DNA from: a virus
Direction: 5' to 3' (one strand)
IMG/VR virus record: IMGVR_UViG_3300003635_000015
Location: 1-33,565 of that record
DNA length: 33,565 nt
The notes under the pieces were generated by a model, which was not told where the DNA came from, did no database searches, and was given only the letters and a program-made list of their open reading frames with translations. A program made the translations under genes and the position numbers. Numbering within the stretch: the stretch's first letter is position 1; the number at the start of each line of letters is the position of its first letter. Positions 1 through 33,565 of this stretch are shown here, piece by piece.

Positions 1-99
1 CCACGTTCGACGACGTGGCAGCGGGCGCCCTTAATACGTTCAAAACGGCGGCCGGGTCGGCGTTCGAAAGTATTATTTTCGACAGCGAAAGCGCCGAGG
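1..99. repeat. Left copy of the 99-bp exact end overlap
   Basis: Bases 1-99 are identical to 33467-33565 by direct comparison. Confidence 0.95.
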
Positions 100-782
100 A
101 CGCGGTTAAAAATTTCGCGGAATCGATGGGCCGTTCGATTATCAATGCCCTGGGCCAAATGGCGGCGGAATGGGCAGCTTATTACCTGGTGCAGTCGCTA
201 ATGGGTAAAACCGCCCAAACAGGCGCAGCACTAGCCATGACCGCCAACGCGGCAGCTACGTCGGTACAGGCTGGACTTGCGGCGTTTGCATCGACCGCAG
301 CAATACCGATTGTTGGCCCAGCATTAGCGCCTGGCGCAATGGCGGCAGCGATTGCGGCCACGTCGCCAATGGTTGCGGCTATTTCGGCCCTATCCTCGGC
401 AGCAGTTGCAGGTCGCGCCCTGGGCGGCCAGGTACGCGGCGGCGAGTCGTATATCGTCGGCGAACGCGGCCCCGAATTGCTAACAATGGGCGCCAGCAAT
501 GGTCGCATAACACCAAACGAAATGCTGCGCGGCCAGACCAGGTCGAAATCGCCCCAGGCAAACGGTAAAACCGAGCTAAACGTCCAGGTGCAAAATTACG
601 GGTCGTCGGAAATCGAGGTCCAGCGTATCAGCGAAACCGACGTGCGTATTATTGCGCGCGAGGTTGCAGCGCAAACCGTACGCGAGCAGGCGCCGGGCGT
701 CGTCGCGTCCGATATCAATAACCCGAACGGTCGCGTATCGAAATCGCTATCGAATAACGTGATCGCACAGCGGAGGCGCTAA
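1..782 (+). CDS. Tape measure protein, 3' part (continuation of the ORF starting at 31837, joined through the 99-bp end overlap)
   Basis: The frame is open from base 1 to TAA at 780-782. Base 1 equals base 33467, and the frame is continuous with 31837..33565 (33481-31837 is divisible by 3). It contains a long Ala/Gly-rich hydrophobic block (AALAMTANAAATSVQAGLAAFASTAAIPIVGPALAPGAMAAAIAA), typical of tape measure proteins, and lies directly upstream of the tail-tip genes. Confidence 0.85.
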   Translation, partial: TFDDVAAGALNTFKTAAGSAFESIIFDSESAEDAVKNFAESMGRSIINALGQMAAEWAAYYLVQSLMGKTAQTGAALAMTANAAATSVQAGLAAFASTAAIPIVGPALAPGAMAAAIAATSPMVAAISALSSAAVAGRALGGQVRGGESYIVGERGPELLTMGASNGRITPNEMLRGQTRSKSPQANGKTELNVQVQNYGSSEIEVQRISETDVRIIAREVAAQTVREQAPGVVASDINNPNGRVSKSLSNNVIAQRRR

Positions 783-784
783 CG

Positions 785-1270
785 ATGCCGACAAAATTTG
801 TCATACCACCAAACCAAAACAGCTACCGGGTAAAGGACGGCGAAACAACGATCGCCGTTAAACTGGACGGCGGCGCCTCGAGGTACCGTCGCGATATCCT
901 TAACGCGTATTTTATGATCGATTGCGAATGGCGATTAAGCCAGGATGATTACCAATATTTCCGGGCGTTTTACAGCACCGAAACGATAAACGGTTCCCTA
1001 CCATTCCTTATTGATCTAATTACCGATACAGCAGACCTTGTCGAGCACGAGGCCCAGTTTGTTCCGGATTCGATGCAGCTTTCCGTTTATAACGGTGGAT
1101 ATTTCACGATTCGAGCGCAGCTTGAGGTTAAGCCAGTTGCACGGGATACAACCCTCGACGCCGCCCTGGTAATGCTATTTACTCAATACGGCGGCGATTC
1201 TCAAATTATCGGCGCGTTTAATCAGCTTGAGCAGTTGGTTAACGTAGATTTTGCGGGGTCTTTCGCATGA
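785..1270 (+). CDS. Minor tail protein (lambda gpM / distal-tail position)
   Basis: The ATG is preceded by GGAGG about 9 nt upstream. It is the first gene after the tape measure and its stop overlaps the next start (ATGA). The function is inferred from position only. Confidence 0.55.
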   Translation: MPTKFVIPPNQNSYRVKDGETTIAVKLDGGASRYRRDILNAYFMIDCEWRLSQDDYQYFRAFYSTETINGSLPFLIDLITDTADLVEHEAQFVPDSMQLSVYNGGYFTIRAQLEVKPVARDTTLDAALVMLFTQYGGDSQIIGAFNQLEQLVNVDFAGSFA

Positions 1271-5874: not shown

Positions 5875-8727
5875 ATGGCTGTAATCACACAACAAGAGCT
5901 TGAGGACGCAGCAACGGATGCGAAATCGCTTGAAGATGTCGTTAACGGTTCAGATACTTTCGACGGTACTGGGATCGTTACGACTAGACTAGGACAATCG
6001 GTAAAAACATTATCCAAAGTAATTACCGACCTATCAAACGAGGACGTCGGAGCGTCGGCGGCGGCATTGATTAACCAAAAATTTATTGGCCTGGCGTCGC
6101 AGATTTTTATTGATGGTCGAGTATATTGGAATCCCTTAACCAGGACGATCAGCTTTCCGACCGTGGTTTCCAGAACGCGCGACGTTGGTACAAATACAAT
6201 TTACAGCCCAGCGACGACTTTTGATATTCAATTTTCGTCGTCAGGCAATAGCCTATTATATTTCGATATGGCGGTCGCGGCCGGATCAAATAATCCATTC
6301 GTGGCTGTAGAAAACACAGCGGTTCCATTGGACGAATATAAAATACCCGTCGCAGTGTATCGCGCGAATCGTATCATTCCGTTTATTGATATGGACCTCC
6401 AATTCTCAAACCGTCCAGGGCTTGAGATTCAGCACGTAAGCGCGTCGAAGCCAATTATTTACGTCGATAAAGACCATTACGGCGTAACAGTTGGCACCTG
6501 GATGATCCATAACTCATTTCGCTTTAGAAATAATGGGATAAGCACGTCCCTTGCTTTAGGTAATACGCTATCGACCGCAGTTGATCCGACAGGGCGTTTT
6601 TATTGGGCGGATTATTACGAGGTGGCCGGAGGTTTTGCATCAGCGAATAGCTTGTATGTTGATATTTCGGACAGCACAGCAAAATGCGTTACGTCGACGA
6701 CGGCAATTTCTGGCGATGCTGGCGGTTATGTTCCGTTGGCTATGTACAAAGACGGTACAATTTCGTCGTTAAATGGTTGCGAGGTTAAAAAAGTAAGCCA
6801 GGAAGTACGCGACGAGCCAGAAATATATTTCGCCGAGAGGACGGTATTAAATCCTCAAACTCATGTTATGAGCTTCAAAAAATCAGCTTGGAAAATACCG
6901 TCAAAACTTGGCGATGGCGTAAATATCAATACACCAGCGACAACGTACGATATAACGCTTTCACCATCAGGCGCCCAAGTGATCGTTTACGATACAACGG
7001 TCGCGGCGGGTTCAAATCCTTATGTCGTAAGGGATTTCGATACGAAATACGATTATGACGATACGCAAATCGTATTAGGTTATTACTGGCTGAAAACCCT
7101 TGTAAATGTAAAGCTGGGGAATGTTCAGCTAACGACAGAAGTCGACAGAAACGTCCAGCATTTAATCAGTAATTACCCGATTATTTTTATCAACGAGGGC
7201 GATACCTCGTTCGGAATTACGCCAGGCACAAACGGAACTTGGATGGTTCCGATAAATACGCGATATCGGTTTATTGGCGTCGACCTTATTTCAACAAACG
7301 ACGGGACGCCGAGCGCGGCCACCGATCCAACAGGAACGTACGACTGGTCGAATTATACTCAAGTTGATGTTGAGCATAACGCCGGTTCTACGCTGTACCT
7401 GGACCCTGGTGCAAACCTTGTTTACGAGGCGCCAAATAACGAGACAATTTCCGGCACTGGTTCAGGTTATGTACCAATGGCGACCCGTCACTATAGCAAT
7501 GGGGAGTTGCAAACCACTTGCGGAATTCGTGCGTTTTATGCAGGACAGGACCCGCTAACCTTGTTTACGCGGGTTTCGCAAAACGAGGCCGATATTGCAG
7601 CAAACGCCGAAGCAGTTTCGATTCCTGTATTGTTAAGCAATGGCGAGAAATTGCGAAAGTTTAATAAAAAATTATCAGTAATCAAAAACGGCGGCAGCGA
7701 AGTAATAAAAATTGCATCATGTTTTTGCGATAGTTGGTGGGATCGTAATTATTCCGGCGACGAATTATTGTCGAGGTTTAGCGACGATGGAATCGCGATG
7801 GGTAGTTCCGGTTATATATCGCTTAATCCACACTGGCCGCAATCAAACGGCGTAACGCTAAAAAATGGCGACGGAACAACCGATCCAGACGGCGGGGCGT
7901 ATCCCTGGGATGTCGACGACGGTTCAGACGGGGCCAGTTCTCAAGCATTATTGAGCGGTTCAGGAAATGCGTTAAGTACGATCGGAAATGATCAAACTTT
8001 GCTTATTTCAAATATTAAAGGTTCGTCGATATATCTTACTTACGAGGACCTAAACGGGATATTCGAGTATCAAATAAACGGCGGTTCCTGGACTACTGTA
8101 GTCGGCGGTTCGACAGGTAATGCAATTCGGTTGCAGATAGCTAGCGGCCTTTCCGGTTCGGCTAATACTGTGGGGGTTCGAACTACGTTAAACACCGGAA
8201 CAGTAAGATTGCTTGATATGTACGCAGACGGGCCAGATACAGGCGTACAATACAGTAAGATGGGCAACGGCAGCACAACGGCGGACGATGCAGTTTTGTG
8301 GCTTAATGCGATGAAGCGAGAGCTAACGGCGATGGATATCGACGTCGGGATTTTTGCTTATGGTGTTAACGACCAAAGGCAAGGAAAGGACCCAGCCACG
8401 TTTAAAACGTTAATGGAATCTCTTGTCGCTGGATTTTTCCAAGCGTTACCGGATGCGACGCTTTTGCTTGTTTGCCCGCCGCGATGCGTAAATGATGGGG
8501 ATTCAGGCACTAGCCCGATGCAGGATTTTGGCAGCGCATACCAAAGCGTTTATTATGACAACGACGCAGTGGAAATTGTGCGGCTTGATAAATTATGGGG
8601 CGACTATGCGATGGAAAGCGCGGACCCGTCCACGTTCGCCAGCGATGGCGCGCATTTAAATGTCGGAAATGGATATAAACGGTATATCGGTTCGTTTTAC
8701 GATCACATGATGAAAAGATATGCCTAA
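5875..8727 (+). CDS. Tail fibre / tailspike with a C-terminal SGNH (GDSL) esterase domain
   Basis: The RBS is GAGGGG. The N-terminus is fibre-anchor-like (ELEDAATDAKSLEDVVNG). There are two roughly 240-aa internal repeats. The SGNH blocks are CDSWW (block I Ser), YGVNDQ (block III) and SDGAHLN (block V, DxxH). Confidence 0.75.
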   Translation: MAVITQQELEDAATDAKSLEDVVNGSDTFDGTGIVTTRLGQSVKTLSKVITDLSNEDVGASAAALINQKFIGLASQIFIDGRVYWNPLTRTISFPTVVSRTRDVGTNTIYSPATTFDIQFSSSGNSLLYFDMAVAAGSNNPFVAVENTAVPLDEYKIPVAVYRANRIIPFIDMDLQFSNRPGLEIQHVSASKPIIYVDKDHYGVTVGTWMIHNSFRFRNNGISTSLALGNTLSTAVDPTGRFYWADYYEVAGGFASANSLYVDISDSTAKCVTSTTAISGDAGGYVPLAMYKDGTISSLNGCEVKKVSQEVRDEPEIYFAERTVLNPQTHVMSFKKSAWKIPSKLGDGVNINTPATTYDITLSPSGAQVIVYDTTVAAGSNPYVVRDFDTKYDYDDTQIVLGYYWLKTLVNVKLGNVQLTTEVDRNVQHLISNYPIIFINEGDTSFGITPGTNGTWMVPINTRYRFIGVDLISTNDGTPSAATDPTGTYDWSNYTQVDVEHNAGSTLYLDPGANLVYEAPNNETISGTGSGYVPMATRHYSNGELQTTCGIRAFYAGQDPLTLFTRVSQNEADIAANAEAVSIPVLLSNGEKLRKFNKKLSVIKNGGSEVIKIASCFCDSWWDRNYSGDELLSRFSDDGIAMGSSGYISLNPHWPQSNGVTLKNGDGTTDPDGGAYPWDVDDGSDGASSQALLSGSGNALSTIGNDQTLLISNIKGSSIYLTYEDLNGIFEYQINGGSWTTVVGGSTGNAIRLQIASGLSGSANTVGVRTTLNTGTVRLLDMYADGPDTGVQYSKMGNGSTTADDAVLWLNAMKRELTAMDIDVGIFAYGVNDQRQGKDPATFKTLMESLVAGFFQALPDATLLLVCPPRCVNDGDSGTSPMQDFGSAYQSVYYDNDAVEIVRLDKLWGDYAMESADPSTFASDGAHLNVGNGYKRYIGSFYDHMMKRYA

Positions 8728-9394: not shown

Positions 9395-10141
9395 ATGCCG
9401 TACCAATTCGACAAAAACGACACAATCGCCCCGCTAATTGATATCGCACGCGGCCATTATAACGAGTTCCGGCCGGTGCAATTATTCGGGTTTAATCGTT
9501 CGGTCGGTACGGATTTTGAAACCATTTATAACAACGGCGGCGGCCTGTACCCGTTCCCGGCAGCAGCGGGCACGATTAGCGCAGTAAGCAGCGCAGCCGA
9601 TACGATGGGCGTATATATCGAAGGTTTGGACGCCAATTACGCGCCAATAAGCGAAACGATTACCCTTACCGGCACCACCCCGGCCATCGGCAGCAAATCG
9701 TTTTTACGCGTTAACAAGGCCAGGATTACCGCGAGCAATAACGCCGGGAATATTACGTTAACGATCGGCAGCGACACGGTGGCGTATATCGAGGCGACGA
9801 CCGGCACGCACCAGGCGATCGCCTACACCACCCCAGCAGATACGAAACTGTTTATTGCTGGCGTATCGTTCGCCTCGGGCACGGTTAACCCGAACAAGTA
9901 TTTAACCGGGCGAGCCTGTATCGAAACCCAGGGCGGCCCGGAGTTGCATTTTTGGCAATCGACCTGGTCGCTCGGGTTCCTGCAATTCGACGTTAAAATG
10001 CCGTTCGTTATTCCGCCCCGGACCGATTTTTCCCTCGAGGTTAAATCGAGCAGCGGCGAAAACGAAATCGATTGTTTCGTAAACGCATTCCTCGAGGCCG
10101 ACGGTTGGATCGTCGACGCACTCGCCAGGGAATGGGAATAA
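9395..10141 (+). CDS. Hypothetical beta-rich protein, possibly virion- or tail-associated
   Basis: The RBS is GAGGT and the codon and CpG style match the core genome. The sequence is rich in Thr, Ser, Gly and Ala with short alternating hydrophobic runs. I recognised no catalytic motif. Confidence 0.45.
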   Translation: MPYQFDKNDTIAPLIDIARGHYNEFRPVQLFGFNRSVGTDFETIYNNGGGLYPFPAAAGTISAVSSAADTMGVYIEGLDANYAPISETITLTGTTPAIGSKSFLRVNKARITASNNAGNITLTIGSDTVAYIEATTGTHQAIAYTTPADTKLFIAGVSFASGTVNPNKYLTGRACIETQGGPELHFWQSTWSLGFLQFDVKMPFVIPPRTDFSLEVKSSSGENEIDCFVNAFLEADGWIVDALAREWE

Positions 10142-10157
10142 CAGAAAGGGCGTACCG

Positions 10158-10571
10158 ATGGCCATTGGATTAACAGACCTTATCGCCGGGATATTCAAAC
10201 CGGCGGCCGATTTAATCGACGACTTGCACACCAGCGAGGAAGAAAAACTCGAGCAAAAACGACTATTGCTCGAGGTCCAGGCGCGGGCAATGGACCGCGT
10301 GCACGAATACAATTCGCAGCTACTCGAGGGCCAGGCGAAAATCGTTAACAGCGAGGCGTCGTCCGAACACTGGTTAACGGCAAACTGGCGCCCTCTGGTA
10401 ATGCTTACCTTTACCGGCCTGGTCGTGGCCCGTTTCCTGGGATTCGAGGCCGAGGGTATGACCGACGCCGAATACGAGTCGCTTTGGAACCTAATTACAA
10501 TCGGCCTCGGCGGCTACATTGCCGGGCGATCCGCAGAAAAGGCGATCAAAACGTACAAGTCGAGCGAATAG
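10158..10571 (+). CDS. Holin (GTA_holin_3TM-like)
   Basis: The N-terminal segment is amphipathic (LIAGIFKPAADLIDDLHTSEEEKLEQKRLLLEVQ). It is followed by WRPLVMLTFTGLVVARFLGF and LWNLITIGLGGYIAG hydrophobic helices. The gene lies immediately upstream of the endolysin. Confidence 0.65.
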   Translation: MAIGLTDLIAGIFKPAADLIDDLHTSEEEKLEQKRLLLEVQARAMDRVHEYNSQLLEGQAKIVNSEASSEHWLTANWRPLVMLTFTGLVVARFLGFEAEGMTDAEYESLWNLITIGLGGYIAGRSAEKAIKTYKSSE

Positions 10572-10584
10572 AAAGGCCTTGTAT

Positions 10585-10977
10585 ATGAACGGTTTTAAAT
10601 TCAGCAAGCGATCGCTGGAACGAATGGACGGCGTGCACGACGACCTGGTACGCGTGGCGCATTACGCCCTGGCGATTAGTAAGGTCGATTTCGGTATCCC
10701 GGAATACGGCGGTTTACGCACGGCGGAACAGCAGCGGACCCTATTTAACGACGGCAAAAGCAAGGCCGACGGCGTCCGTAACAAGTCGTACCACCAAACC
10801 GGGCGCGCCCTGGACGTATACGCGTTCGTCGACGGTCGGGCGTCCTGGGACGAACACCACCTCGCAATGGTCGCGGCGGCCATGCTGCAAGCGGCCAGCC
10901 ATTGCGGCGTCGCGCTCGAATGGGGCGGCCTTTGGCGGTCCTTTATCGATATGCCGCATTTTCAAATCCGGGAATAA
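10585..10977 (+). CDS. Endolysin, M15 family (VanY / L-alanyl-D-glutamate peptidase-like)
   Basis: I chose the internal ATG at 10585 (RBS GAAAGG). The zinc-ligand motifs are SYHQTGRALDV and DMPHF. It is the last gene of the late operon. Confidence 0.8.
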   Translation: MNGFKFSKRSLERMDGVHDDLVRVAHYALAISKVDFGIPEYGGLRTAEQQRTLFNDGKSKADGVRNKSYHQTGRALDVYAFVDGRASWDEHHLAMVAAAMLQAASHCGVALEWGGLWRSFIDMPHFQIRE

Positions 10978-11604: not shown

Positions 11605-11943
11605 TTACCTTGCGAGGTAATTATTTACCTGGTCGATCGCGTCGTCGCACCCTTTGCATACCAGGACGGTATGGCCCAGGCCCTCGAGGTACTCGATCCA
11701 GCCCTTTTGATGGTCCGATAATTTCCCGCCCTTTTGCCGTTTCATTTCGACCCACAGCGACCAGGCGGGGACGTACAGGTCCGGGACGCCTGGCAGCACG
11801 CCCTCGAGCTTTAACTGCATGGCGGTTGCTTTTGACCTGGCGCCACCATTAGGGATCGCAAATATGCGAACCCCTCGGTATTGCTGGCGGAACCAAACGA
11901 CGAAATTACGTTGCTCGATATGCTCGGTTGGTATTGTGCTCAA
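11605..11943 (-). CDS. VRR-NUC domain nuclease
   Basis: The PD-(D/E)xK-type pattern is EHIEQRNFVVW...IPNGG...GVPDLYV...LWVEMKRQKGGKLSDHQKGWIEYL. The apparent start is TTG, overlapping the upstream stop (TTGA). Confidence 0.75.
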   Translation of the reverse strand: MSTIPTEHIEQRNFVVWFRQQYRGVRIFAIPNGGARSKATAMQLKLEGVLPGVPDLYVPAWSLWVEMKRQKGGKLSDHQKGWIEYLEGLGHTVLVCKGCDDAIDQVNNYLAR

Positions 11944-12152
11944 AACGGTACCTCGTCGCTAAAATCCGGGCATTCGGCAGAGCCATACGATACGAAATCG
12001 TCGGGCGGCCGAACCCCGGCCAGGTTACAAATTCCGTCGTGCGAATAATGCTCGCAGGTATGGCAGCACTTAGGCACGGCGTTAGTTAGTAGGCGGATTT
12101 CCCGCCAAACCCGTAAAAACTCGGGTTCCGGTGGTCGTTTGTTATCAGTCAT
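11940..12152 (-). CDS. Small Cys-rich hypothetical protein
   Basis: The sequence contains CCHTCEHYSHDGIC...ECPDF. The gene overlaps both neighbours (8 nt upstream, 4 nt downstream) and has core-genome codon style. Confidence 0.6.
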   Translation of the reverse strand: MTDNKRPPEPEFLRVWREIRLLTNAVPKCCHTCEHYSHDGICNLAGVRPPDDFVSYGSAECPDFSDEVPF

Positions 12153-13737
12153 TAAACACCCTTTCTTTTATATCGAAAAACTTTCCGTTTTTCGCGTACT
12201 TGATTAAACCAGGCGGTGGCAATCGCCCCATAAGGTGCGCGATATCCGAAAGGCACGAACACGTTTGGATTTCACGCTTTGCCGCCAGGTCGTCGTTTGT
12301 CAGTTCGAACAGCGTACGGCGTGCACGCTGCCCGGCGTACCCGTCGTGCATTACGGTAACGTATTCCTTTACCGGTGGATCGGATAAGGCGCCGTAATAC
12401 GTAACGACCAGCATTTCGATACCGGTTTTTCGGCTTTCCTGGGTCGTCCATTTCCAGGACGTAACCTCGAGGTCGTCCAGGCCGCCCCCCATAATATCGA
12501 CGTCGTGCAGTTCGTAACGTTTCTCGGGCGCTGGAAATTCGTACCCGCACGCCTCGCACGCCCTGGCTGATAGGTGGACGATTTCGTCGCAGTTGGGGCA
12601 GAGCTTTACCGGCGCCTCGCCGGTGCCCTTGCTGCCCTGGCGCGGCGGTCGTACGGCCGTAATCGGTCCGTGCGTTTGTACGCACCCGGCGAAATCTAAT
12701 ACTAGGCAATGGTCAGCCTTAGACTTTAGTCGCATTCCTCGGCCTACCATTTGAACGTATAGCGTCGGCGATAGCGTCGGGCGCAGCATAGCGATAAGGT
12801 CGATATCCGGGTAATCGAACCCCGTCGTAAGCACGTTCGCGTTTGTCAGGGCGCGAATACGCCCGGCCTTATACTCGGCCAGGATACGGTCGCGTTCGGC
12901 CGTGGGGGTGTCGCCAGTCACGCAGGCGGCGGTTATTCCGTACTCGGTCAGCAAGTCGGCGATCGATTCGGCGTGCTTTACCCCGGTGCAGAAAAACAGC
13001 CAGGCGCGACGGTTGCCCGCCAGCTTGATAACCTCGCGGACGACCTGGTCGTTTTGCATCGGCGTATTAACGGCAGCCTGCAATTCCTTTTCGATGTATT
13101 CGCCCCCGCGTTTGTGTACGCCGTCGGTTTCGAGTTTTAGGTCGGTAACCTTTGACCGGACCGGCGCCAGGTAACCCCGGTGGACCAGTTCCTCGACCGT
13201 TACCGGTTCGATCAGGTCGTCGAATAGGGCGTCGCCGTCGGTAATGTAACCATGCCCCAGGCGGTACGGCGTGGCCGTTAACCCGATAACGCGCAGCGCC
13301 GGGTTTATCGCCTCGAGGTCGCCGATCAGTTTACGGTAACCGCCCTCGTCGCGGTGGTTGATTAGGTGGCATTCGTCGACGATAACCAGGTCGACGTGGC
13401 CCAGCTTTTCGGCCTTGTTGCGTACCGACTGGATACCGGCAAACGTGATCGGTTCGCCCAGGTCACGCTTTCGCAGCCCGGCCGAGTAAATACCCAGGGG
13501 CGCGCCTGGCCAATGCTGGCGCATTTTCTCGGCGTTTTGTTCGATCAGTTCCCGGACGTGCGTTAACATAAGGACCCGCGTTTCGGGCCAGCTTTGCAGC
13601 GCGTCCTTACATAGCGCGGCGACGACGTGCGATTTACCGGCACCGGTGGGCAGCACCAGGCACGGGTGGCCCTGGTCGTTACCCCGGAACCATTCGTAAA
13701 GGTGGTCGATTGCCCGTTGTTGATAATCCCGCAGCAT
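12145..13737 (-). CDS. Superfamily 2 DEAD/DEAH-box helicase with an internal zinc ribbon
   Basis: It has the Q-motif-like LRDYQQRAI, Walker A LPTGAGKS, DECH, the helicase C motifs TNANVLTTGFDYP and QMVGRGMR, and CPNCDEIV...CEACGYEF. Confidence 0.85.
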   Translation of the reverse strand: MLRDYQQRAIDHLYEWFRGNDQGHPCLVLPTGAGKSHVVAALCKDALQSWPETRVLMLTHVRELIEQNAEKMRQHWPGAPLGIYSAGLRKRDLGEPITFAGIQSVRNKAEKLGHVDLVIVDECHLINHRDEGGYRKLIGDLEAINPALRVIGLTATPYRLGHGYITDGDALFDDLIEPVTVEELVHRGYLAPVRSKVTDLKLETDGVHKRGGEYIEKELQAAVNTPMQNDQVVREVIKLAGNRRAWLFFCTGVKHAESIADLLTEYGITAACVTGDTPTAERDRILAEYKAGRIRALTNANVLTTGFDYPDIDLIAMLRPTLSPTLYVQMVGRGMRLKSKADHCLVLDFAGCVQTHGPITAVRPPRQGSKGTGEAPVKLCPNCDEIVHLSARACEACGYEFPAPEKRYELHDVDIMGGGLDDLEVTSWKWTTQESRKTGIEMLVVTYYGALSDPPVKEYVTVMHDGYAGQRARRTLFELTNDDLAAKREIQTCSCLSDIAHLMGRLPPPGLIKYAKNGKFFDIKERVFND

Positions 13738-13743
13738 ACGCCA

Positions 13744-14769
13744 CTACCTCACAATTTTTGCGCCTGGAAAATGCTTTTTAACCTCGTGCACAAATTCGTC
13801 GTCGAGCGAGCATATTTTCGGGTTGGCGATAATTTCGGTCGAGCAGTAACCGCCCTCGCCGTTTATTACCGGCTTGCCCTCGATGATATACACGGGTTCC
13901 CATTCGGTGCTGGCGTCCTGGTCCATTTCCCAGGGCACCAGGTCCGGGTGCAGCGCGTGGTTATCGCAGCCCGTACGCTGGAATTCGACCGGGATACCGT
14001 CGGCCTGGTGGCGTTCACAGCGCCAGGTCGAGTCGCTGCACGGCGTCGAATGCGCGCAGGTGCGACAATTTACCGCAGGCAGCGCGCCCTTATGGCAAAA
14101 TTCGTGGTAATTGCACATTCGGCACTGGTACCAGGTCGGGTCGTTCGATATCGGCGGCGGTGGTGCAGGTTCGGCGACGATCCGGTGCCCTCGATCGACG
14201 TATGCCTGGGCGCGTTCCTTGTCGAGTTTGACCCGCTCGAAATAATACCGGTCGTCGTCCTTACATACGGCGACGTACAAAGCCCGGTCGATTTCCGACC
14301 CCAGCATATAAACCTGGCACTGGGCGAAATGTTGCGGCTTGGATTTCTCGAGGCCGTTTTTTTCCAGGTCGTCGAACGACTTTTTACCGTGGGTTTTGAA
14401 TTCCAGGACGTGGCGCGATTTCGGGGCCTCGGGTACGCCGGAATTCGCGATCCCGTCCATACTACCCGATACGTGATTACCAAAGTCGACCCGGTCCTGG
14501 GCGCCCCCGGTGGTTTTGACGTCGACGCCGATTGCCCGCAGGTCGGAAATAATAATCCGTTCCTCGTTTTGCCCTCGGCGGAAAAGGCGCAGGATACGCC
14601 CAGGGAACCGCTCAGGGCGCGCCCAGCGAAAAGATAACCAAAGGTACCGGTCGCAATGATGGCCGAGCAGGGACGCGCCCAGGTGCGGCCGTGGGTCGTC
14701 CTGGTGGGCCTCGTGGTGCTGGTCGATCAGCGTCGCGGTGCTTACGGTTGGTTCGGGAATAATTGCCAT
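13744..14769 (-). CDS. PD-(D/E)xK exonuclease, Cas4/RecB-like, with Cys clusters
   Basis: The nuclease motifs are D(GIANSG)...EFK...QCQVY. The Cas4-type Cys pattern is an N-terminal HHCDRY plus CRMCNYHEFC (C-x2-C-x5-C). An extra C-terminal Cys/His cluster reads CRTCAHSTPCSDSTWRCERH...GCDNH. Confidence 0.7.
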   Translation of the reverse strand: MAIIPEPTVSTATLIDQHHEAHQDDPRPHLGASLLGHHCDRYLWLSFRWARPERFPGRILRLFRRGQNEERIIISDLRAIGVDVKTTGGAQDRVDFGNHVSGSMDGIANSGVPEAPKSRHVLEFKTHGKKSFDDLEKNGLEKSKPQHFAQCQVYMLGSEIDRALYVAVCKDDDRYYFERVKLDKERAQAYVDRGHRIVAEPAPPPPISNDPTWYQCRMCNYHEFCHKGALPAVNCRTCAHSTPCSDSTWRCERHQADGIPVEFQRTGCDNHALHPDLVPWEMDQDASTEWEPVYIIEGKPVINGEGGYCSTEIIANPKICSLDDEFVHEVKKHFPGAKIVR

Positions 14770-14780
14770 TTCGTTACCTC

Positions 14781-14807
14781 AAATAAAAAGGGGCGCCGTA
14801 GCGCCCC
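14781..14807 (-). terminator. Rho-independent terminator inside the leftward operon
   Basis: The minus strand reads GGGGCGC-TACG-GCGCCCC followed by TTTTTATTT (stems at 14790-14796 and 14801-14807). It lies between the DUF669-like gene and the nuclease gene. The nuclease RBS (GAGGT) starts a few nt after the T-run. Confidence 0.7.
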
Positions 14808-14813
14808 AGGGTT

Positions 14814-15296
14814 TTACTTTTGCCAGGGCGCCTTGCTACCGCTCGAGGCCGGTTGCGACCCGCCGGACTGTGCCGACGGTTGCGGCGCAGCGGACCCGGC
14901 GATCGCCTTGTACCCTTTAACGTCGTTCGAATCGCCGTATTCCTCGGACTTGCGGATCGCGAGCTTAATTTCCAGTTCGCCACCGATTAGCTGGTCGGTG
15001 TCGCGGACCTTGGCGAGGCCGATTGCCCCCATAAGTTCGGCGAGTTGCTGGCGCCCGATTTCCTCGGCTTTCGGGTTCGGGTTTTTAATGTTCAGGTTGC
15101 CCCAAACGACCCGGCCCTCGTGCGTCGGCCCGGTAATGTCGTACCGTACGGCGATATACTGGCCGTTACCGGCTTTGGTATCGCGCAGGTCGGCGTCGTT
15201 AATTTTTGCGCGGTACCAGCCCGCCGGTAATGGGTCGTATTGCCCGCCGGTGGTTTCTACGGTTGACGCGTCGAATTCCTCGTTAAGAAATGCCAT
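14814..15296 (-). CDS. DUF669-like ssDNA-binding protein
   Basis: The sequence contains LPAGWYRAKI...GNGQYIAVRYDITGP...GRVVWGNLNI, followed by a low-complexity Ser/Gly/Pro/Ala tail. Its position next to a Sak4-like ATPase is the usual arrangement for this family. Confidence 0.65.
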   Translation of the reverse strand: MAFLNEEFDASTVETTGGQYDPLPAGWYRAKINDADLRDTKAGNGQYIAVRYDITGPTHEGRVVWGNLNIKNPNPKAEEIGRQQLAELMGAIGLAKVRDTDQLIGGELEIKLAIRKSEEYGDSNDVKGYKAIAGSAAPQPSAQSGGSQPASSGSKAPWQK

Positions 15297-15301
15297 TTTT
15301 G

Positions 15302-15694
15302 TTACCTCGCTTTGGTTTCGGTTGTGATATTAAAACTCGGGCGGCCCTCGCTGGTGGTGATCGCGTCGAGTAAGGGGTCCGTAATGGACGGGTCGGCAGC
15401 TTTCCAGGCGGCCAGGTTTAGGTCGGGTTTCCAGCGAAACAGCGTTCCCAGGTGATCGGTAAGGCCGTGCTCGGCCGCCAAATCCTGCAATAGGTCGCCG
15501 TCGATCCGACGGTTAAGTCGCGTCGTAACCTTGATCGTTACGCCGTCGAGCTTGGTTGTGGCCGATCCGTCCGGCTTGGAATTTACCAGGCCGATAAGTC
15601 GGTCCTCGATTTCGCGCCGGGCCTCGGTTGCCTGGCGTTCGGTTTCCTTTAGGGCCAGCCAGTCGCCGACCATTGCGTTAAGTTCGTCGTTCAT
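15302..15694 (-). CDS. Hypothetical protein of the recombination module
   Basis: An ATGA overlap joins it to the upstream ATPase gene. It has core codon style and I recognised no motif. Confidence 0.6.
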   Translation of the reverse strand: MNDELNAMVGDWLALKETERQATEARREIEDRLIGLVNSKPDGSATTKLDGVTIKVTTRLNRRIDGDLLQDLAAEHGLTDHLGTLFRWKPDLNLAAWKAADPSITDPLLDAITTSEGRPSFNITTETKAR

Positions 15695-16371
15695 TTTGCA
15701 CCCCCTGCAATTTTATTGATGATTTCGCCCAGGTCGGGAGCCTCCCAGGTGTCGAGCTTGCCCGAGCGATCCTTTGCCAGCCAAAGGCCGTCGGAATCGC
15801 ACATAAGCGCGCGCTGGGTAACGCCGTCGGCGTCCTTTTCAACACGCAAGGCCAGGACCTCGTCGAAAAAGTACGGCAATTGCTGCCCGGTTTTATTGCC
15901 CGGCATACTGGGCGAATACAGCACGCGCCCCATTTCATCCTGGGTTTTCTCGAGCTTGGCCGACATATACACATTACGGCCCGGCAAATCACGAAACGCC
16001 CGGATAATATCGGCCATTTGTTCCTGCATGGCGCCGTAAGCCTGGCGTGGGTCCTTGGCGACCTTTTTTTCGTGGTTAAGGCAAACCTCGGCGATTTCCG
16101 ATATCGAATCCAGGGCGACCGATTTATACGGTTTCGCCTCGTCCGATTCGGTTAACCAGGTATAAGCCTCTTTTAACGTCGCCATATTCGTAACCTCGAT
16201 ATAAGGCACGTCGGCGTCGTGCAGGGACAAAAGCCCGCCCTCGGCAGATAGGACGATCGGGTCCGGCAAAGTCGCCACCAGGGACGTTTTACCGGCGCCA
16301 GCCTGGCCGTACACCAGGACCTTTACACCATTGGCAGCAAACCCGCCGGTGCGTTTCAGTTGAATAGCCAT
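15691..16371 (-). CDS. RecA-fold AAA ATPase, Sak4-like (AAA_24 type)
   Basis: I chose the ATG at 16371 (RBS AAGGA) rather than the track start at 16428. Walker A is VLVYGQAGAGKTS and the Walker B-like segment is SVALDSISE. Confidence 0.75.
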   Translation of the reverse strand: MAIQLKRTGGFAANGVKVLVYGQAGAGKTSLVATLPDPIVLSAEGGLLSLHDADVPYIEVTNMATLKEAYTWLTESDEAKPYKSVALDSISEIAEVCLNHEKKVAKDPRQAYGAMQEQMADIIRAFRDLPGRNVYMSAKLEKTQDEMGRVLYSPSMPGNKTGQQLPYFFDEVLALRVEKDADGVTQRALMCDSDGLWLAKDRSGKLDTWEAPDLGEIINKIAGGAK

Positions 16372-16705: not shown

Positions 16706-18704
16706 CGGCGGGTTTACAAAGCCCGTCGAGGTGGCCCCAGCGCCACCCGAGGACCAGGTCCGATCGCAAATGATCGAATTCGGCCTCGAGGCACCCGACC
16801 AAATAATAATCGACGGCAATATTCACCGGTTCCGGGCCGGGACCAAAGGACGCGGCGGGAACGGCGATAAAACCGGGTGGTATATCATTTTTCCCGATGG
16901 CGTACCCGCCGGGCGGTTTGGTTGCTGGCGCGCCGGGATCGAGGCCACGTTTAAGGCCGACGTCGGGCGCAAGCTAACCCAGGCCGAGGAAATGGCGCAC
17001 GCGCGCCGTATGAACGAAGCAAAGCAGCGCCGGGACGAGGAACGGGCACGAAAGCAGGAAATCGTCGCGGACACGGTCGGCACGATATGGTCGGACTGCA
17101 CGGCGGCCCAGGATTCGCACCCGTACCTGGCGAAAAAAGGCGTTAAGGCGCACGGCACCAGGGTAACCGGCGACGGTCGCCTAGTGGTACCATTGTTTGA
17201 CGACCGGGGCGAAATTACGTCGCTGCAATATATCGACGCCAACGGCGGCAAGCTATACCACAGCGGCGGCAAAACCGGCGGGGCATACTGGCAGGTCGGC
17301 ACCCTGGACGACGACGGCGTAATTTATATCGCCGAGGGATTCGCCACAGCGGCGACGATTTACCAGGAAACCGGGCGGCCTTGCGTGATCGCTTTTAGCG
17401 CCTCGAACCTGGTACCGGTTGCTGGGTCGCTGCGCGATCGATACGGCGCCCAGCAGTCGATCGTTATTATCGCAGATAACGACCAAAGCGGCACCGGGCA
17501 AAAGTACGCGGACCAGGCCAGCGCAAAACATGGCGCCCGCGTCGCAATTCCGCCAATATCGGGCGATGCGAACGATTACGTACAGGCCGGGCACGACCTG
17601 GTCGAGCTTTTGACCCCTAAAACGTCGGACTGGTTGATCCAGGCGGACGAATTCAGCGCCAAACCGGCGCCGTTATCCTGGGCACTTAAACGCTGGTTAC
17701 CCTCGAACGGCTTGGTAATGATGCACGGCCCCAGCGGCGGCGGTAAAACGTTCGTCGTACTCGACTGGTGCCTGGCGATCGCTGGCGGCCTCGAGGAACG
17801 CATGGGGCACAAAGTTAACCAGGGAACCGTCGTTTACCTGGCGGGCGAGGGCCACCACGGACTGCGCGGTCGTATCGCCGTATGGAAACAGGAAAACAAA
17901 GTCGGCAGCCTGGATATGTACCTTTCGCGCGACGGGTGCGACCTAAACACGGCCGAGGGATACCAGCGCGTCGTCGATAACATACGAGGCACCGGGAAAA
18001 CCCCGTCGCTAATCGTCGTCGATACCTTGCACCGATTCCTGCAAGGCGACGAGAACAGCGCCCAGGATACAAAAACAATGCTCGACGCGTGCGGCGGCCT
18101 TATAACCGAGTTCGGTTGCGCGGTTATCCTGGTACACCATACCGGCGTAAATTCCGAGGCGCAGCACCGGGCCAGGGGTTCGAGCGCCTGGCGTGGCGCC
18201 CTGGATATCGAAATATCGATCGTACCGGCGTCGGAACACGGCGACCCGATGGAAATAATACAGCGCAAAAGCAAGGACGCCGAAATCGCCGAAACGATGT
18301 ATTGCCGCCTGGATAGCGTAGCAATCCGGGGGTGGTACGACGAGGATAACGAACCCGTTACCTCAGCCGTCGTTCGCCAGGTTGACGCCACCGAGAAACG
18401 CGAAAAGGCCAAAGCCCCGTCGCAGCTTGATAAGCACCGAAAACTAATCGAGCGCGCGTTTTGGCACGGTGGCGCCGAGGTCCGCGAGGATTCGCCATAT
18501 ATTAGCCGGTCGGCGTTTAAGGATATGCTCGAAAACGACGGGATCGCAGCGAGCAGCGTTAAAAATTACGTAAAGGCCAGTTACCAAAATGGCCCGGTCG
18601 CGAATTTACTTAATTCGGAAATTATCGCCACGTACGAGCACGGTTGGATCGTTACCGACCTGGTTATGGCGTCGGCGCTATTGATGGCGAAAGGGGGCAA
18701 GTAA
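16680..18704 (+). CDS. Toprim primase fused to a RecA-type (AAA_25 / DnaB-like) helicase
   Basis: The start is GTG with RBS GAAGGGGG. The Toprim motifs are IYIAEGFATAAT and IIADNDQSGTGQ. The helicase Walker A is MHGPSGGGKTF and Walker B is LIVVDTLHRF. About 100 aa at the C-terminus have no assigned motif. Confidence 0.8.
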   Translation: MADITQIFNGGFTKPVEVAPAPPEDQVRSQMIEFGLEAPDQIIIDGNIHRFRAGTKGRGGNGDKTGWYIIFPDGVPAGRFGCWRAGIEATFKADVGRKLTQAEEMAHARRMNEAKQRRDEERARKQEIVADTVGTIWSDCTAAQDSHPYLAKKGVKAHGTRVTGDGRLVVPLFDDRGEITSLQYIDANGGKLYHSGGKTGGAYWQVGTLDDDGVIYIAEGFATAATIYQETGRPCVIAFSASNLVPVAGSLRDRYGAQQSIVIIADNDQSGTGQKYADQASAKHGARVAIPPISGDANDYVQAGHDLVELLTPKTSDWLIQADEFSAKPAPLSWALKRWLPSNGLVMMHGPSGGGKTFVVLDWCLAIAGGLEERMGHKVNQGTVVYLAGEGHHGLRGRIAVWKQENKVGSLDMYLSRDGCDLNTAEGYQRVVDNIRGTGKTPSLIVVDTLHRFLQGDENSAQDTKTMLDACGGLITEFGCAVILVHHTGVNSEAQHRARGSSAWRGALDIEISIVPASEHGDPMEIIQRKSKDAEIAETMYCRLDSVAIRGWYDEDNEPVTSAVVRQVDATEKREKAKAPSQLDKHRKLIERAFWHGGAEVREDSPYISRSAFKDMLENDGIAASSVKNYVKASYQNGPVANLLNSEIIATYEHGWIVTDLVMASALLMAKGGK

Positions 18705-20082: not shown

Positions 20083-20394
20083 ATGCCAATACCACCCATT
20101 ACAGAAACAATCGAAAAGGTTATCGACTGGCACGACGCCCGAAACCTTATCCTGGGTTCGACCGATAAAGACCAATACCTTAAACTGGTGTCGGAGGTCG
20201 GCGAGCTTGGCGATAATATCGCCAAAGGTAACGACGTCGAGGACGATATCGGCGATATCCTGGTCGTGCTAATCAATATCGCGCACCGGAATAATACCTC
20301 GCTCGAGGATTGCCTGGCCGTCGCGTACGACGACATAAAGGACCGAAAGGGCCGCATGGTCGACGGCGTATTCGTTAAGGACCTGGGCCAATGA
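20083..20394 (+). CDS. MazG-like nucleotide pyrophosphohydrolase
   Basis: The all-alpha NTP-PPase metal-binding pattern is SEVGELGDNIAKGNDVEDDIGDILVVLINIA (ExxE ... ExxD). Confidence 0.7.
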   Translation: MPIPPITETIEKVIDWHDARNLILGSTDKDQYLKLVSEVGELGDNIAKGNDVEDDIGDILVVLINIAHRNNTSLEDCLAVAYDDIKDRKGRMVDGVFVKDLGQ

Positions 20395-31125: not shown

Positions 31126-31529
31126 TGGATTTTGACAAACTGGCAACAGTTGGCCGTCACGAGGCCGGGGGCGAGTGCAATATTCTCGACCCCGGTACCG
31201 GGAAGCCGACCGACGTATTTATTAAAATGCAGGGGTCGGATTCGAAAGCCTGGCGAGCAGCTAAAAAAAACCAAACGGCGAAAATTATTGCAGCGCGAGC
31301 AGCAAAAAAGGACCTCGACGGCGATATTAACGACCTGGGAATCGATTTCGACCAAATGGATATCGACGCCCTGGTATCGGTTACGATCGACTGGCGAGGT
31401 ATTAGCAAGGACGGGAAACCGTACAAATTTTCGGCAGAAAACGCCGAGGTACTTTATTCGCAAGCCCCGACTATTGTTAGGCAGTTGTTAAACTTTATCG
31501 GCGACGGCGAAAATTTTACCGGCGGCTAA
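31125..31529 (+). CDS. Tail assembly chaperone (gpG-like)
   Basis: It is a 134-aa acidic ORF between the tube and tape measure genes. A slippery heptamer lies 10 nt before its stop. Confidence 0.75.
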   Translation: MDFDKLATVGRHEAGGECNILDPGTGKPTDVFIKMQGSDSKAWRAAKKNQTAKIIAARAAKKDLDGDINDLGIDFDQMDIDALVSVTIDWRGISKDGKPYKFSAENAEVLYSQAPTIVRQLLNFIGDGENFTGG

Positions 31530-31852
31530 TCGACGAGTTTATACTTTTCGGTCGCTGGTGCTTTTATATGCGATCGAAACCGAAAGGGTCGGAGGTTAGC
31601 CGATACGACACGTTAAAACAGGTCGAAAAAAGCACCGGTAAAACACCGGCCGGGTTGTTAAATGGTCCTATATTGCGCCAAGAGCACGGCGACGCCTGGG
31701 ACGCATTTAACACCCTGGCCGAACACAGTTACCAAGAAATCGACGCATACGGTCGGTTAACTGGTAATTTCTTGAGTGCCTGGGAGGTTGACGCCATAAT
31801 GACGTTAAGTAGATATATTGGCGAGGACTTATCCCAATGGCCACCGAAGTAG
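31125..31852 (+). CDS. Tail assembly chaperone frameshift product (gpGT-like); -1 shift at 31511-31517
   Basis: The -1 frame is open from 31481 to TAG at 31850-31852. Track ORF 31568-31852 is in exactly that frame. That ORF has no Shine-Dalgarno sequence upstream of its ATG. Confidence 0.65.
31511..31517 (+). other. Slippery heptamer A_AAT_TTT (X_XXY_YYZ) for the -1 frameshift
   Basis: In the G frame the codons are GAA AAT TTT (31509-31517). After a -1 slip the next codon is TAC at 31517 and reading continues into the T frame. Confidence 0.6.
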
Positions 31853-33565
31853 GACAGTTAACCCTTAAAGTCGATACAGGCGACGTCGCACGCGCGACAA
31901 AGCAAATCGACGATATGGGCAATTCCGCAAGGGATACCGCCCAGAAAATCGACAAGGTCGGCCCCTCGACCAAAACAGCAGGCGCCGGAACCCGTGGGCT
32001 GGGCAACGAGGCCCAGAAAGCAGGCAAGCGAATAAACGATTTCGGCGACGAAATCCAGGATGCCAACGCCAAACTTAAAACGATGCCGACCCAAACAAAG
32101 GCGGCAAACGACGCAATGGGTAATTTCGGTCGCAAGGCCGGGATGGCAGGTATTCAGTTCGAGCAGTTGGCGGGCCAGATTGCAATGGGCCAGAACCCAA
32201 TGCAGGCGATCGGCGTACAGGCGGCCGACCTTGGGTTTATCCTGGGCGTGCCTTTGCTGGGCGCCGTCGTCGGTATCGGGTCGGCTATTGCGTCGGTCCT
32301 ATTGCCGAACCTGCTAAAAAGCGAGGACGCATCCGAAACCCTATCGAATGCAATGGAGCGACTTTCGGAGGTTATCGAAAGGACCGAAACCGGGTCGTTC
32401 CAGCTTACCCAGCGATTCGTTACCCTGGCGGAAAAATCCCGCGAGCTTGCGGCGATCGACCTTGCGATCGGTATCGCCCAGGCGACGATCGCATACGAAA
32501 CCGCGACCGAGCAGATACGCGGGCAGCTTGAGGGTATTGTCGGCATGATCGGGCCGACCACCGCAGCGTTTGAGGAAATAAACGACGCGATCCGGGAAAC
32601 CGGCGAGGTGCCCCGCGAGTTGCAGGGGTTCTATAACTGGACCAGAGAAATCGGCGAGGAATTCGGCATTTCACGCGACCAGGCCCTCGACCTGGTACTG
32701 GCGTTTAAGCGATTCCAGGACGGCGTTATCCCATTGGCGGATTTACGTACCGAGGTGCTGCGCCTGGCCGAAAATGGCGATATGTCGCGCGACAGTACGC
32801 GCCAGCTTGTATCGGCGTTCCTGGATAACGTCGTCGCAGCGGGTAACGCGGAACAAGCCCTCGAGGCATTAAACGCGGTCCTAAATAATACCGATACAGC
32901 CCTGCAAACAGCAACGCAGCACGCGGACGGGTTCGCCCAAAGCGTGGCGGGCATGGTTTCGGTGCTCGAGCGACGCGACGCAGCCCTTAAAAATTCCGAG
33001 GAAACCCTGGCGGTGCAGGCAGCGGTCGCACGAGGCGCCAGCGAGGCGGAGGTACAGCGTATCCGCGACCTTTACGCGTCGATCGATGCAGAGGAAGCGC
33101 GCCAGGAAGCGGCCAGGGAGTCCGCCAGGGAGCAAGAGCGGGCCGCCAGGGAAGCGGAACGCACAGCCGAACGCGAAGCCAGGGCAGCCGAAACAAAGGC
33201 CGAGAGGGAAGCCCAGGCGGCCCAAGATTCGATTACCCGCCGAAACCAGGAAGCGCAAAGCGTCGCCGAATCCTTGTTGCGTGAGGAGGAAGCGATCGCG
33301 CTATCGTACGAACGTCGGCGCGAGGCGATCCTAGCCTCGACCCAGCTTACCGAGGAACAGAAAAACGAGCTTATCCGGCGTTTAACCGAGGAATCGAACG
33401 CGGAATTGCTCGAGCTTAACGCGAGTTACTGGGACCAATGGCTTACCAAACAGCAAGAAAGCATGACCACGTTCGACGACGTGGCAGCGGGCGCCCTTAA
33501 TACGTTCAAAACGGCGGCCGGGTCGGCGTTCGAAAGTATTATTTTCGACAGCGAAAGCGCCGAGG
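31837..33565 (+). CDS. Tape measure protein, 5' part (open at the window end, continues at 1-782; about 803 aa in total)
   Basis: The ATG is at 31837 with RBS GAGGA, and I saw no stop through 33565. The ORF track omits it because it is open-ended. It contains GMAGIQFEQLAGQIAMGQNPMQAIGVQAADLGFILGVPLLGAVVGIG and a long Ala/Arg/Glu coiled-coil region (about 33080-33240). Confidence 0.85.
   Translation, partial: MATEVGQLTLKVDTGDVARATKQIDDMGNSARDTAQKIDKVGPSTKTAGAGTRGLGNEAQKAGKRINDFGDEIQDANAKLKTMPTQTKAANDAMGNFGRKAGMAGIQFEQLAGQIAMGQNPMQAIGVQAADLGFILGVPLLGAVVGIGSAIASVLLPNLLKSEDASETLSNAMERLSEVIERTETGSFQLTQRFVTLAEKSRELAAIDLAIGIAQATIAYETATEQIRGQLEGIVGMIGPTTAAFEEINDAIRETGEVPRELQGFYNWTREIGEEFGISRDQALDLVLAFKRFQDGVIPLADLRTEVLRLAENGDMSRDSTRQLVSAFLDNVVAAGNAEQALEALNAVLNNTDTALQTATQHADGFAQSVAGMVSVLERRDAALKNSEETLAVQAAVARGASEAEVQRIRDLYASIDAEEARQEAARESAREQERAAREAERTAEREARAAETKAEREAQAAQDSITRRNQEAQSVAESLLREEEAIALSYERRREAILASTQLTEEQKNELIRRLTEESNAELLELNASYWDQWLTKQQESMTTFDDVAAGALNTFKTAAGSAFESIIFDSESAE
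33467..33565. repeat. Right copy of the 99-bp exact end overlap
   Basis: Bases 33467-33565 are identical to 1-99 by direct comparison. Confidence 0.95.

Follow-up and report, generated by a model that had tools for sequence, protein, structure and literature searches.

The virus record IMGVR_UViG_3300003635_000015 of IMG/VR (33,565 nt, positions 1 to 33,565, analysed over its whole length and termed the window) represents the complete genome of a small, tailed, virulent-looking siphovirus. Its short-word composition consists of three superimposed layers, which act at the level of the DNA and are maintained between lineages of the phage. The first is a nearest-neighbour rule on double-stranded DNA, by which G/C (S) is clustered with G/C and A/T (W) with A/T (W/S rule). 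The second is a real, ongoing and intense avoidance of restriction sites, by which part of the Leu-Glu codon pairs is displaced to CTCGAG. As a third layer, CCWGG and, to a lesser extent, CCTCGAGG are favoured as whole words. A host repair or defence environment is tentatively considered as the source of the first and third layers, with less than even confidence.

Word counts and codon-preserving null models

Exact counts were compared with two null models. Null A permutes synonymous codons and keeps the proteins and the codon usage, while Null B additionally fixes all dinucleotides. CpG showed an observed/expected ratio (o/e) of 1.55 over the genome, which has a G+C content (GC) of 54.5%. TCGA was found 391 times on the circular genome of 33,466 nt (394 times in the whole record of 33,565 nt; approximately one per 85 nt; expectation 127), CCWGG 332 times (zero-order expectation approximately 84) and CTCGAG 43 times (zero-order expectation 9.5). 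All of these words were far above Null A, namely CpG (3861 vs. 3240, z 30), TCGA (391 vs. 229, z 14.6), CCWGG (332 vs. 114, 2.9-fold, z 27) and CTCGAG (43 vs. 7.2, 6-fold, z 15), as was CGATCG (59 vs. 21.5, 2.7-fold, z 9.7). Under Null B, a clear excess was retained by CTCGAG (3.4-fold, z 10), CCWGG (1.9-fold, expected 172, z 19) and CGATCG (1.8-fold, z 6), while TCGA (1.19-fold), GTCGAC (0.91-fold) and GGCGCC (1.3-fold) were close to expectation. In total, 12 of the 16 tetramer palindromes were over-represented.

A preliminary description of the window, which relied on hand counts, had reported an enrichment of CpG, TCGA, CTCGAG and CCWGG. The enrichment is real and persists under the synonymous-codon shuffling proposed there, although TCGA, GTCGAC and GGCGCC largely, and CGATCG partly, follow from the CpG and codon-junction rule described below. 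Its counts were all correct or close to correct, including the 41 CTCGAG sites; the GC content of about 57% was too high. The five TCGA in positions 1–140 and the eight CCWGG in positions 1–600 agree with the exact count. The five quoted 60-nt lines do contain 8–11 CpG each, but are GC-rich, the genome mean being 6.9.

The W/S nearest-neighbour rule

The third codon base is G/C when the next base is G/C and A/T when the next base is A/T. Valine is an example: GTC accounts for 68% of its codons if G follows, for 2% if A follows and for 0% if T follows. The preliminary description had seen a part of this rule (C before G, otherwise A or T), which holds but is wider than stated. When the sequence is written as a string of W and S, the lag-1 autocorrelation is 0.20, with values of about 0 at longer lags. 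Among the dinucleotides, AG/CT (o/e 0.61) and CA/TG (0.74) are low, AA/TT is high (1.39) and TA is at 1.06. At codon junctions CG (1.48), GC (1.23), TA (1.61), AA (1.58) and TT (1.73) are raised and CT (0.38), AG (0.49), CA (0.58), TG (0.55) and TC (0.46) lowered. CpG is raised in all three codon phases (1.36 and 1.50 within codons, 1.48 at the junction). All four pairs of WSW trinucleotides are low (AGA/TCT 0.19, TCA/TGA 0.34, ACT/AGT 0.43, ACA/TGT 0.55), while CGA/TCG and AAA/TTT both reach 2.1.

On the coding strand, words and their reverse complements deviate alike (AGA 0.29 and TCT 0.16; TCA 0.40 and TGA 0.41; CGA 1.46 and TCG 1.35), and the 1,386 nt of non-coding DNA are biased in the same manner (CpG 1.41, AG/CT 0.69). 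CpG o/e is between 1.31 and 1.88 in all 1-kb windows, and the signature is present in both gene orientations and in the low-GC tail-fibre region. The pressure therefore acts on double-stranded DNA and not on translation, in line with the DNA-level preference suggested in the preliminary description. A codon-pair bias at the level of translation is ruled out by the strand symmetry and the bias in non-coding DNA, and local islands are ruled out by the presence of the signature in every 1-kb window. An excess of TCGA is confined to the frame xTC GAx (265 vs. 116) and is not seen as TCG Axx or xxT CGA. The whole of the CpG excess, most of that of TCGA, GTCGAC and GGCGCC and a part of that of CGATCG are thus expressions of one W/S rule.

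Avoided words and displacement to CTCGAG

Of the 64 hexamer palindromes 24 are absent, compared to 0.8 expected under Null A and 3.2 under Null B, a deficit that the preliminary description had overlooked. With up to two copies allowed the number rises to 31, of which 13 are individually significant (Poisson p < 0.01, Null B), including CCGCGG (0 vs. 23.9), GCCGGC (0 vs. 23.2), CCCGGG (0 vs. 10), GGGCCC, ATTAAT, CTGCAG and GGATCC. The non-palindromic CTGGAG/CTCCAG is also missing (14–19 expected), and CTNAG occurs only nine times (o/e 0.07). The hexamers absent here are absent as well from 26 kb of sequence of sister lineages with approximately 19% third-position divergence, so the avoidance is maintained. 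The lack of matching restriction systems in the host, one of the explanations offered in the preliminary description, is contradicted by the 24 absent palindromes and the absence of CTGGAG. Several further non-palindromic words were rare, namely TGGAG/CTCCA (2 vs. 26–42 expected) and, under the codon null, GGAGA/TCTCC (0 vs. 46) and GAAGA/TCTTC (2 vs. 58). Such words may be targets of Type IIS-, IIG- or III-like enzymes or may simply follow from the bias in trinucleotides.

CTCGAG largely represents a codon pair for Leu-Glu, partly displaced from the avoided CTGGAG. In 34 of the 43 sites (79%) it is read in the frame CTC GAG, which accounts for 34 of the 60 Leu-Glu dipeptides, while CTG GAG is never used. 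The preliminary description had pointed to sites in different frames and dismissed a single Leu-Glu effect, which does not hold for the majority of the sites. The extent of displacement was estimated by a simulation in which codon usage and dinucleotides were kept and 100 strongly depleted 4–6-mers were removed. The expected number of CTCGAG rose from 13 to 26 (43 observed), that of CCTCGAGG from 3 to 8 (13 observed), that of CGATCG from 32 to 40 (59 observed), that of TCGA from 329 to 349 (391 observed) and that of CCWGG from 176 to 202 (332 observed). Pure displacement by avoided words was rejected as a sufficient cause, as it covers approximately 40% of the residual CTCGAG excess and little of that of CCWGG.

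The glutamate codon after CTC is GAG in 34 and GAA in 5 cases, while the ratio is 47:42 after ATC, GTC or TTC (p = 1.5e-4), which is a palindrome-specific, symmetric interaction at CTCGAG. In 13 cases CTCGAG extends to CCTCGAGG. The overall spacing of CTCGAG is indistinguishable from random; two local runs are listed in Table 1.

CCWGG as a whole word

The CCWGG excess is found in all three frames (28 vs. 12, 72 vs. 20 and 223 vs. 71 in frames 1 to 3; 2.3-, 3.5- and 3.1-fold), and C-CTG-G holds 54% of all CTG codons. Both flanks of the codon interact, with odds ratios of 6.4 for CTG (p = 1e-9) and 3.6 for CAG, compared to 1.3 (not significant) for the control codon CCG. A second-order (trinucleotide) model under protein constraint yielded 210 CCWGG, 1.6-fold below the 332 observed. 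Codon, dinucleotide, trinucleotide and displacement nulls thus all fail to account for the excess. A functional periodic spacing of the sites was rejected, since the coefficients of variation of the distances (1.00 for CCWGG, 0.99 for TCGA) correspond to random placement (0.98–0.99).

Maintenance between lineages

Between this genome and the lineage of the L003 type, third positions within CCWGG diverge by 0.093 compared to 0.191 elsewhere (p = 1e-4), and third positions within CpG by 0.123 compared to 0.212 (p = 5e-11). CGATCG and CTCGAG were not additionally conserved between the lineages (for CGATCG, 12 sites lost with 12.5 expected). Singleton changes in three lineages (12.3 kb) were polarised by parsimony. 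CpG was lost 254 and gained 174 times, CCWGG lost 31 and gained 17 times, while WSW words were gained 239 and lost 152 times and AGA/TCT gained 44 and lost 20 times. Third-position C-to-T changes were rarest in the contexts CCN, NCC and NCG and most common in NCA and NCT.

As parsimony is biased in skewed sequences, a truly stationary process was simulated on the same tree as a control. At face value the raw asymmetry is partly a parsimony artefact, since the stationary simulation already gives a lost/gained ratio of 1.14 for CpG. The observed ratios exceed this bias (CpG 1.46 vs. 1.14; WSW 0.64 vs. 0.82), which is a hint of active maintenance. It is suggestive of mutation running against the signature and of selection or biased correction restoring it.

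Distribution among relatives

Approximately 160 loci (L numbers in the following) were obtained by scanning IMG/VR and JGI metagenomes for TerL. In 116 other loci of at least 8 kb, nearly all of them TerL relatives, the W/S autocorrelation had a mean of 0.003 (standard deviation 0.037) and a maximum of 0.069; among the loci compared, the W/S rule is confined to the clade of the genome itself. Members of this clade with approximately 90–92% identity were obtained from independent samples (L003, L084–L086, L165, L217–L219 and L220). A more distant member, L221 (Logan SRR24204724, 5.6 kb, 76% nucleotide identity), has the dinucleotide signature (CpG 1.58, AG/CT 0.58, W/S 0.18) and 5-fold CCWGG, but lacks CTCGAG and CCSGG. 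The W/S rule is therefore retained across the clade, whose members differ in the palindromes that they avoid. The tail-fibre region at 5242–8735 corresponds to 4301–8212 in L165, where the tail-fibre gene is replaced by a non-homologous gene of 1081 aa. Both versions have the full signature, which implies a donor pool sharing it; tail-fibre relatives in IMG/VR and in the protein database were of ordinary composition.

A deficit of hexamer palindromes beyond chance was found in every relative (L003–L163); L033, for instance, lacks 40 of the 64 with 1.1 expected. CCWGG, CCSGG, GCWGC, GGWCC, CCGG and GATC are mostly all-or-none among the relatives, being either nearly absent or approximately 2–4-fold enriched. 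With a codon-aware null, CCWGG was either close to zero (0 vs. 26, 0 vs. 19, 0 vs. 27) or at 1.5–2.4-fold, and these states track the TerL clades. One clade (L017, L020–L026, L032, L060) shares the set of CCWGG, TCGA, CTCGAG and CGATCG, yet has normal dinucleotides, by which layer 3 is separable from layer 1.

Pfam-confirmed C5 methyltransferases are encoded in L008, L031 and L053, and N6/N4 enzymes in L032, L096, L109 and L049. A screen for C5 or N6/N4 motifs gave no candidate in the genome itself or in L003, L084–L086, L165, L217, L218 and L221. The methyltransferases of the CCWGG-enriched L032 and L096 are of the N6/N4 type, not of the C5 type. An unrelated group with distantly related endolysins (L192–L208, GC 35%, no megablast match to GenBank phages) showed CpG of 1.2–1.45, AG/CT of 0.61–0.73, AA/TT of 1.3 and W/S of 0.09–0.15, with TCGA almost absent. 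L138 and L139 are located on one contig (JGI20153J14295_10000365, 38.4 kb), which has one TerL copy near each of its ends and probably represents a circular genome assembled to more than unit length.

Genome organization and gene content

The identity of both ends of the record (Table 1) and the tape-measure gene running across the junction show that the genome is complete, circular or circularly permuted, with a unique length of 33,466 bp. The tape-measure gene begins at 31837, still within a tail assembly chaperone gene (31568–31852). Besides the modules in Table 1, tail genes, both terminase subunits, a portal and a P22-type coat protein are encoded; TerL is approximately 53% identical to that of Guernseyvirinae-like enterobacterial phages. 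No DNA polymerase, integrase or tRNA gene was found in the genome. In the absence of a polymerase gene, replication and mismatch repair rely on the host.

Table 1. Positions of selected features in the window
Feature	Position	Strand	Remark
99-bp exact direct repeat	1..99 = 33467..33565		assembly overlap of circular or circularly permuted genome
Receptor-binding/tail-fibre gene (950 aa), SGNH-hydrolase-like end	5875..8727	+	GC 45–49%
Five CTCGAG sites in a local run	10034, 10091, 10248, 10269, 10323 (span 10034..10328)
Holin and M15-type endolysin	10158..10977	+
VRR-NUC, SF2 helicase, Cas4-like PD-(D/E)XK exonuclease, DUF669 (SSB-like), DUF7173, AAA_24 (Sak4-like)	11605..16428	-	recombination/replication module
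Toprim/AAA_25 primase-helicase	16680..18704	+
MazG-like nucleotide pyrophosphatase	20083..20394	+	sole nucleotide-pool gene
Four CTCGAG sites in a second run	24442, 24592, 24661, 24796
Tape-measure gene	31837 to 782		across the junction

A Pfam and PHROG search that covered the called genes, apart from several structural ones at 24.4–31.5 kb, as well as a number of additional open reading frames (ORFs) revealed no methyltransferase, ThyA-like/thymidylate-synthase-like, PurZ, DpdA or glycosyltransferase gene. This agrees with the preliminary description, in which no methyltransferase gene had been recognised; the phage-encoded protective base modification considered there has no gene in its support. 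Two proteins without assigned function gave no informative match by sequence or by fold, an early protein of 165 aa (model with a predicted local distance difference test score (pLDDT) of 64, no fold match at E < 0.1) and a protein of 248 aa (predicted structure with pLDDT 34). Three long ORFs lie antisense to real genes (13627–14637 on the plus strand, 27221–28093 and 19806–20486 on the minus strand; 336, 290 and 226 aa). They are probably not genes but a by-product of the depletion of TGA/TCA and TAG/CTA.

The endolysin is 60–63% identical to endolysins of Pseudoalteromonas phages. This similarity is the sole clue to the host and hints weakly at a marine Gram-negative bacterium. The signature is ordinary in the nearest cultured phages by architecture or lysis genes, Pseudoalteromonas phage H40/1 and Salicola phage CGphi29. 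When 25 kb were compared with GenBank phages by megablast, no match was obtained, and a TerL scan of GTDB genomes retrieved only two short contigs of metagenome-assembled genomes (70% TerL identity) with ordinary composition, neither a prophage nor a host. Identical copies of the TerL and tail-fibre proteins were not on record, and the sample identifiers gave no hit in the literature.

Possible origin of the signature

The explanation put forward here, still with somewhat less than even confidence, is that the repair or defence environment of the host generates layers 1 and 3, by selection or biased mismatch correction, and that restriction avoidance is added to it. Under the W/S rule G:C beside G:C, CpG above all, persists, while isolated G:C flanked by A:T is lost. 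The rule lifts CpG, AA/TT and TA and lowers AG/CT, CA/TG and WSW words, and through NTC|GAN codon pairs it inflates TCGA, GTCGAC, GGCGCC and part of CGATCG. Family-wide restriction avoidance strips two dozen hexamer palindromes and CTGGAG, with Leu-Glu pushed into CTC GAG. CCWGG and CCTCGAGG would be words tolerated by the host, most simply via host methylation and/or T:G mismatch repair at these sites. The environment would act on a recombining phage population as selection or biased mismatch correction rather than as neutral mutation bias. As neither a polymerase nor methyltransferase or modification genes were found, layers 1 and 3 are attributed to the host; we infer a host-encoded agent and an involvement of methylation or T:G repair. 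A more specific version is possible but doubtful: context-dependent correction or selection would rewrite nearly every free position and protect G:C beside G:C and the palindromes CCWGG and CCTCGAGG, either by T:G-to-C:G biased heteroduplex repair in a phage population with much recombination or by positive selection for host-methylated 'safe words'.

Several observations weigh against this explanation. The specific footprint of very-short-patch repair was not seen, as CTWGG/CCWAG are no more depleted than the outer-position and some transversion neighbours of CCWGG. Of the transitions among the lineage differences in CCWGG, 28 are at inner and 21 at outer positions, so the inner ones are not rare. 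The relative L021 has 1.9-fold CCWGG with normal CTWGG, and lambda (71 vs. 111) and E. coli phage ST20 (68 vs. 87), both phages of Dcm+ Vsr+ hosts, have no CCWGG excess. The flux asymmetry is modest after correction for parsimony (p of approximately 0.01–0.03 per motif by a rough normal approximation, the motifs being non-independent). Furthermore, we know of no documented bacterial repair activity that favours G:C next to G:C in general.

A serious rival, if a somewhat unlikely one, is plain amelioration, i.e. a drift to the neutral mutational equilibrium of the host through its polymerase and repair, with restriction avoidance as the only selected component. The host would then share the di-, tri- and pentanucleotide profile; a host-specific dinucleotide pressure was also among the explanations in the preliminary description. 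In favour of this rival, the signature is strand-symmetric and evenly spread, non-coding DNA and swapped cassettes included, and the genome has no recognisable DNA polymerase gene of its own. Other clades of the family have coherent host-like signatures (e.g. CpG 1.3, TCGA 2.4-fold), the unrelated 35%-GC group L192–L208 has a milder form of the same type of signature, and CpG is reported to be over-represented in extreme halophiles (PMC2643941). However, phage signatures are usually damped copies of that of the host, and Salicola phage CGphi29, a saltern phage and the sole cultured one of similar architecture, has an ordinary profile. To our knowledge, the combination of CpG at 1.55 with TA at 1.06 exceeds any bacterial signature. 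Amelioration is further at odds with the flank interactions of CCWGG and CTCGAG, which act on whole palindromes, unlike neighbour-dependent mutation, and the net recent substitution flux away from the signature, which goes beyond the parsimony bias, is suggestive evidence against it. The flank interactions, together with the conservation of CCWGG between lineages, would fit selection for palindromes made 'safe' by efficient or orphan host methyltransferases for CCWGG, CTCGAG/CCTCGAGG and CGATCG, the remaining bias being a side effect. By analogy with the highly iterated palindromes (HIPs) of cyanobacteria, methylation may block overlapping or nearby cleavage or mark the DNA as self. The clade-wise absence or enrichment of CCWGG, with CCSGG and GCWGC behaving alike, and the palindrome set shared by the subclade with normal dinucleotides point in the same direction, and HIP-type palindromes (CGATCG-based, GGCGCC) co-occur with cognate methyltransferases (PMC4390886). 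Nevertheless, this alternative is regarded as unlikely: a benefit from extra methylatable sites is not known, the enrichment is 2–6-fold compared to the 15–300-fold reported for HIP1 (PMC5861425), the spacing is random (coefficient of variation of about 1), CGATCG is without extra conservation, and the genome-wide W/S rule and the WSW depletion are left unexplained.

Very improbable is a non-canonical base in the virion DNA, e.g. a fully substituted modified cytosine, which would alter the mutability or repair of its neighbours, leave the word bias as a mutational shadow and also make ordinary restriction sites irrelevant. The MazG-like pyrophosphatase, several small early genes without assignable function and the context dependence of the third-position C-to-T changes (rarest in CCN, NCC and NCG) would be compatible with it. 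On the other hand, no gene of a modification pathway was found in the part of the genome covered by the Pfam and PHROG scans, the 165-aa protein yielded a low-confidence model without significant fold match, a 33-kb genome has little room for such a pathway, and restriction is evidently still relevant to a phage that strongly avoids 24 hexamer palindromes.

Comparison with known systems and significance

Among established mechanisms Dcm/Vsr comes closest to a CCWGG excess, but the signs specific to it were not seen. Its very-short-patch footprint in E. coli consists of elevated CCWGG and lowered CTWGG and CTAG. CCWGG is raised here, too, its third positions are conserved, and CTWGG/CCWAG and CTAG are at 0.5 and 0.4 of the codon null. 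In contrast to the E. coli footprint, the depletion is not clearly confined to the inner transition neighbours (CTWGG/CCWAG 0.44–0.50 under Null A and 0.73–1.08 under Null B; outer neighbours 0.26–0.39), CCWGG is far above its level in the coliphages lambda and ST20, which show no enrichment, and L021 is enriched without CTWGG loss. With this neighbour depletion and the negative results for lambda and ST20, the pattern is not assigned to a specific Dcm/Vsr footprint. The biology of Vsr is covered elsewhere (PMC2715241, PMC6116569).

The cyanobacterial HIP1 (GCGATCGC) and its alternates (TCGATCGA, GGCGCC) are linked to orphan methyltransferases (PMC4390886, PMC5861425), and a repair- or methylation-driven origin has been proposed for them. 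As in the case of HIPs, few GC-rich palindromes are over-used in all frames in the phage, among them CGATCG (59 copies) and GGCGCC (41 copies). HIPs are described as far more extreme and quasi-periodic, whereas spacing in the phage is random and no cognate methyltransferase was found in it. Moreover, GCGATCGC and TCGATCGA occur only seven times each, and the dominant motif, CCWGG, is not a HIP.

Phage restriction-site avoidance is a familiar phenomenon to which the 24 missing hexamers and the missing CTGGAG, with the same words missing in the sister sequences, correspond. The over-representation of 12 of 16 tetramer palindromes, CCWGG, CTCGAG and CGATCG does not, and avoidance alone does not create it, as the displacement simulation reached only 202 of the 332 CCWGG. 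Large DNA viruses of invertebrates show CpG excess and CpT/ApG depletion independent of codon usage, which is attributed to host pressure, with non-CpG host methylation as the proposed mechanism; these viruses have eukaryotic hosts, and neither W/S clustering nor a palindrome bimodality is described for them (PMC4219779). The combination of raised CpG and lowered CpT/ApG is shared by the phage. We know of no bacterial counterpart of the proposed non-CpG methylation mechanism. The genome-wide and strand-symmetric nature of the bias and the dependence on the host replisome resemble signature amelioration between phage and host, whereas the unusual magnitude and the recent substitutions against the signature do not.

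No description of a phage with this combination was found in the literature. Short-word statistics are used for predicting phage hosts and for inferring restriction pressure, and CpG-rich phage genomes with so limited a set of words will mislead the prediction of hosts from k-mers as well as codon-pair analyses. The clade joins extreme site avoidance with a strong over-use of other palindromes and a neighbour rule far beyond the values of 116 relatives. A T:G-to-C:G biased repair, if true, would amount to a counterpart, in a virus of prokaryotes, of GC-biased gene conversion or HIP formation, and either this repair or 'safe words' would represent a new way in which host repair or defence shapes phage sequences beyond site avoidance. 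If host repair or methylation is the cause, the pattern would be a readable footprint of the DNA-handling systems of an uncultured host; if selection is the cause, it would reveal a logic of defence or counter-defence not yet described.

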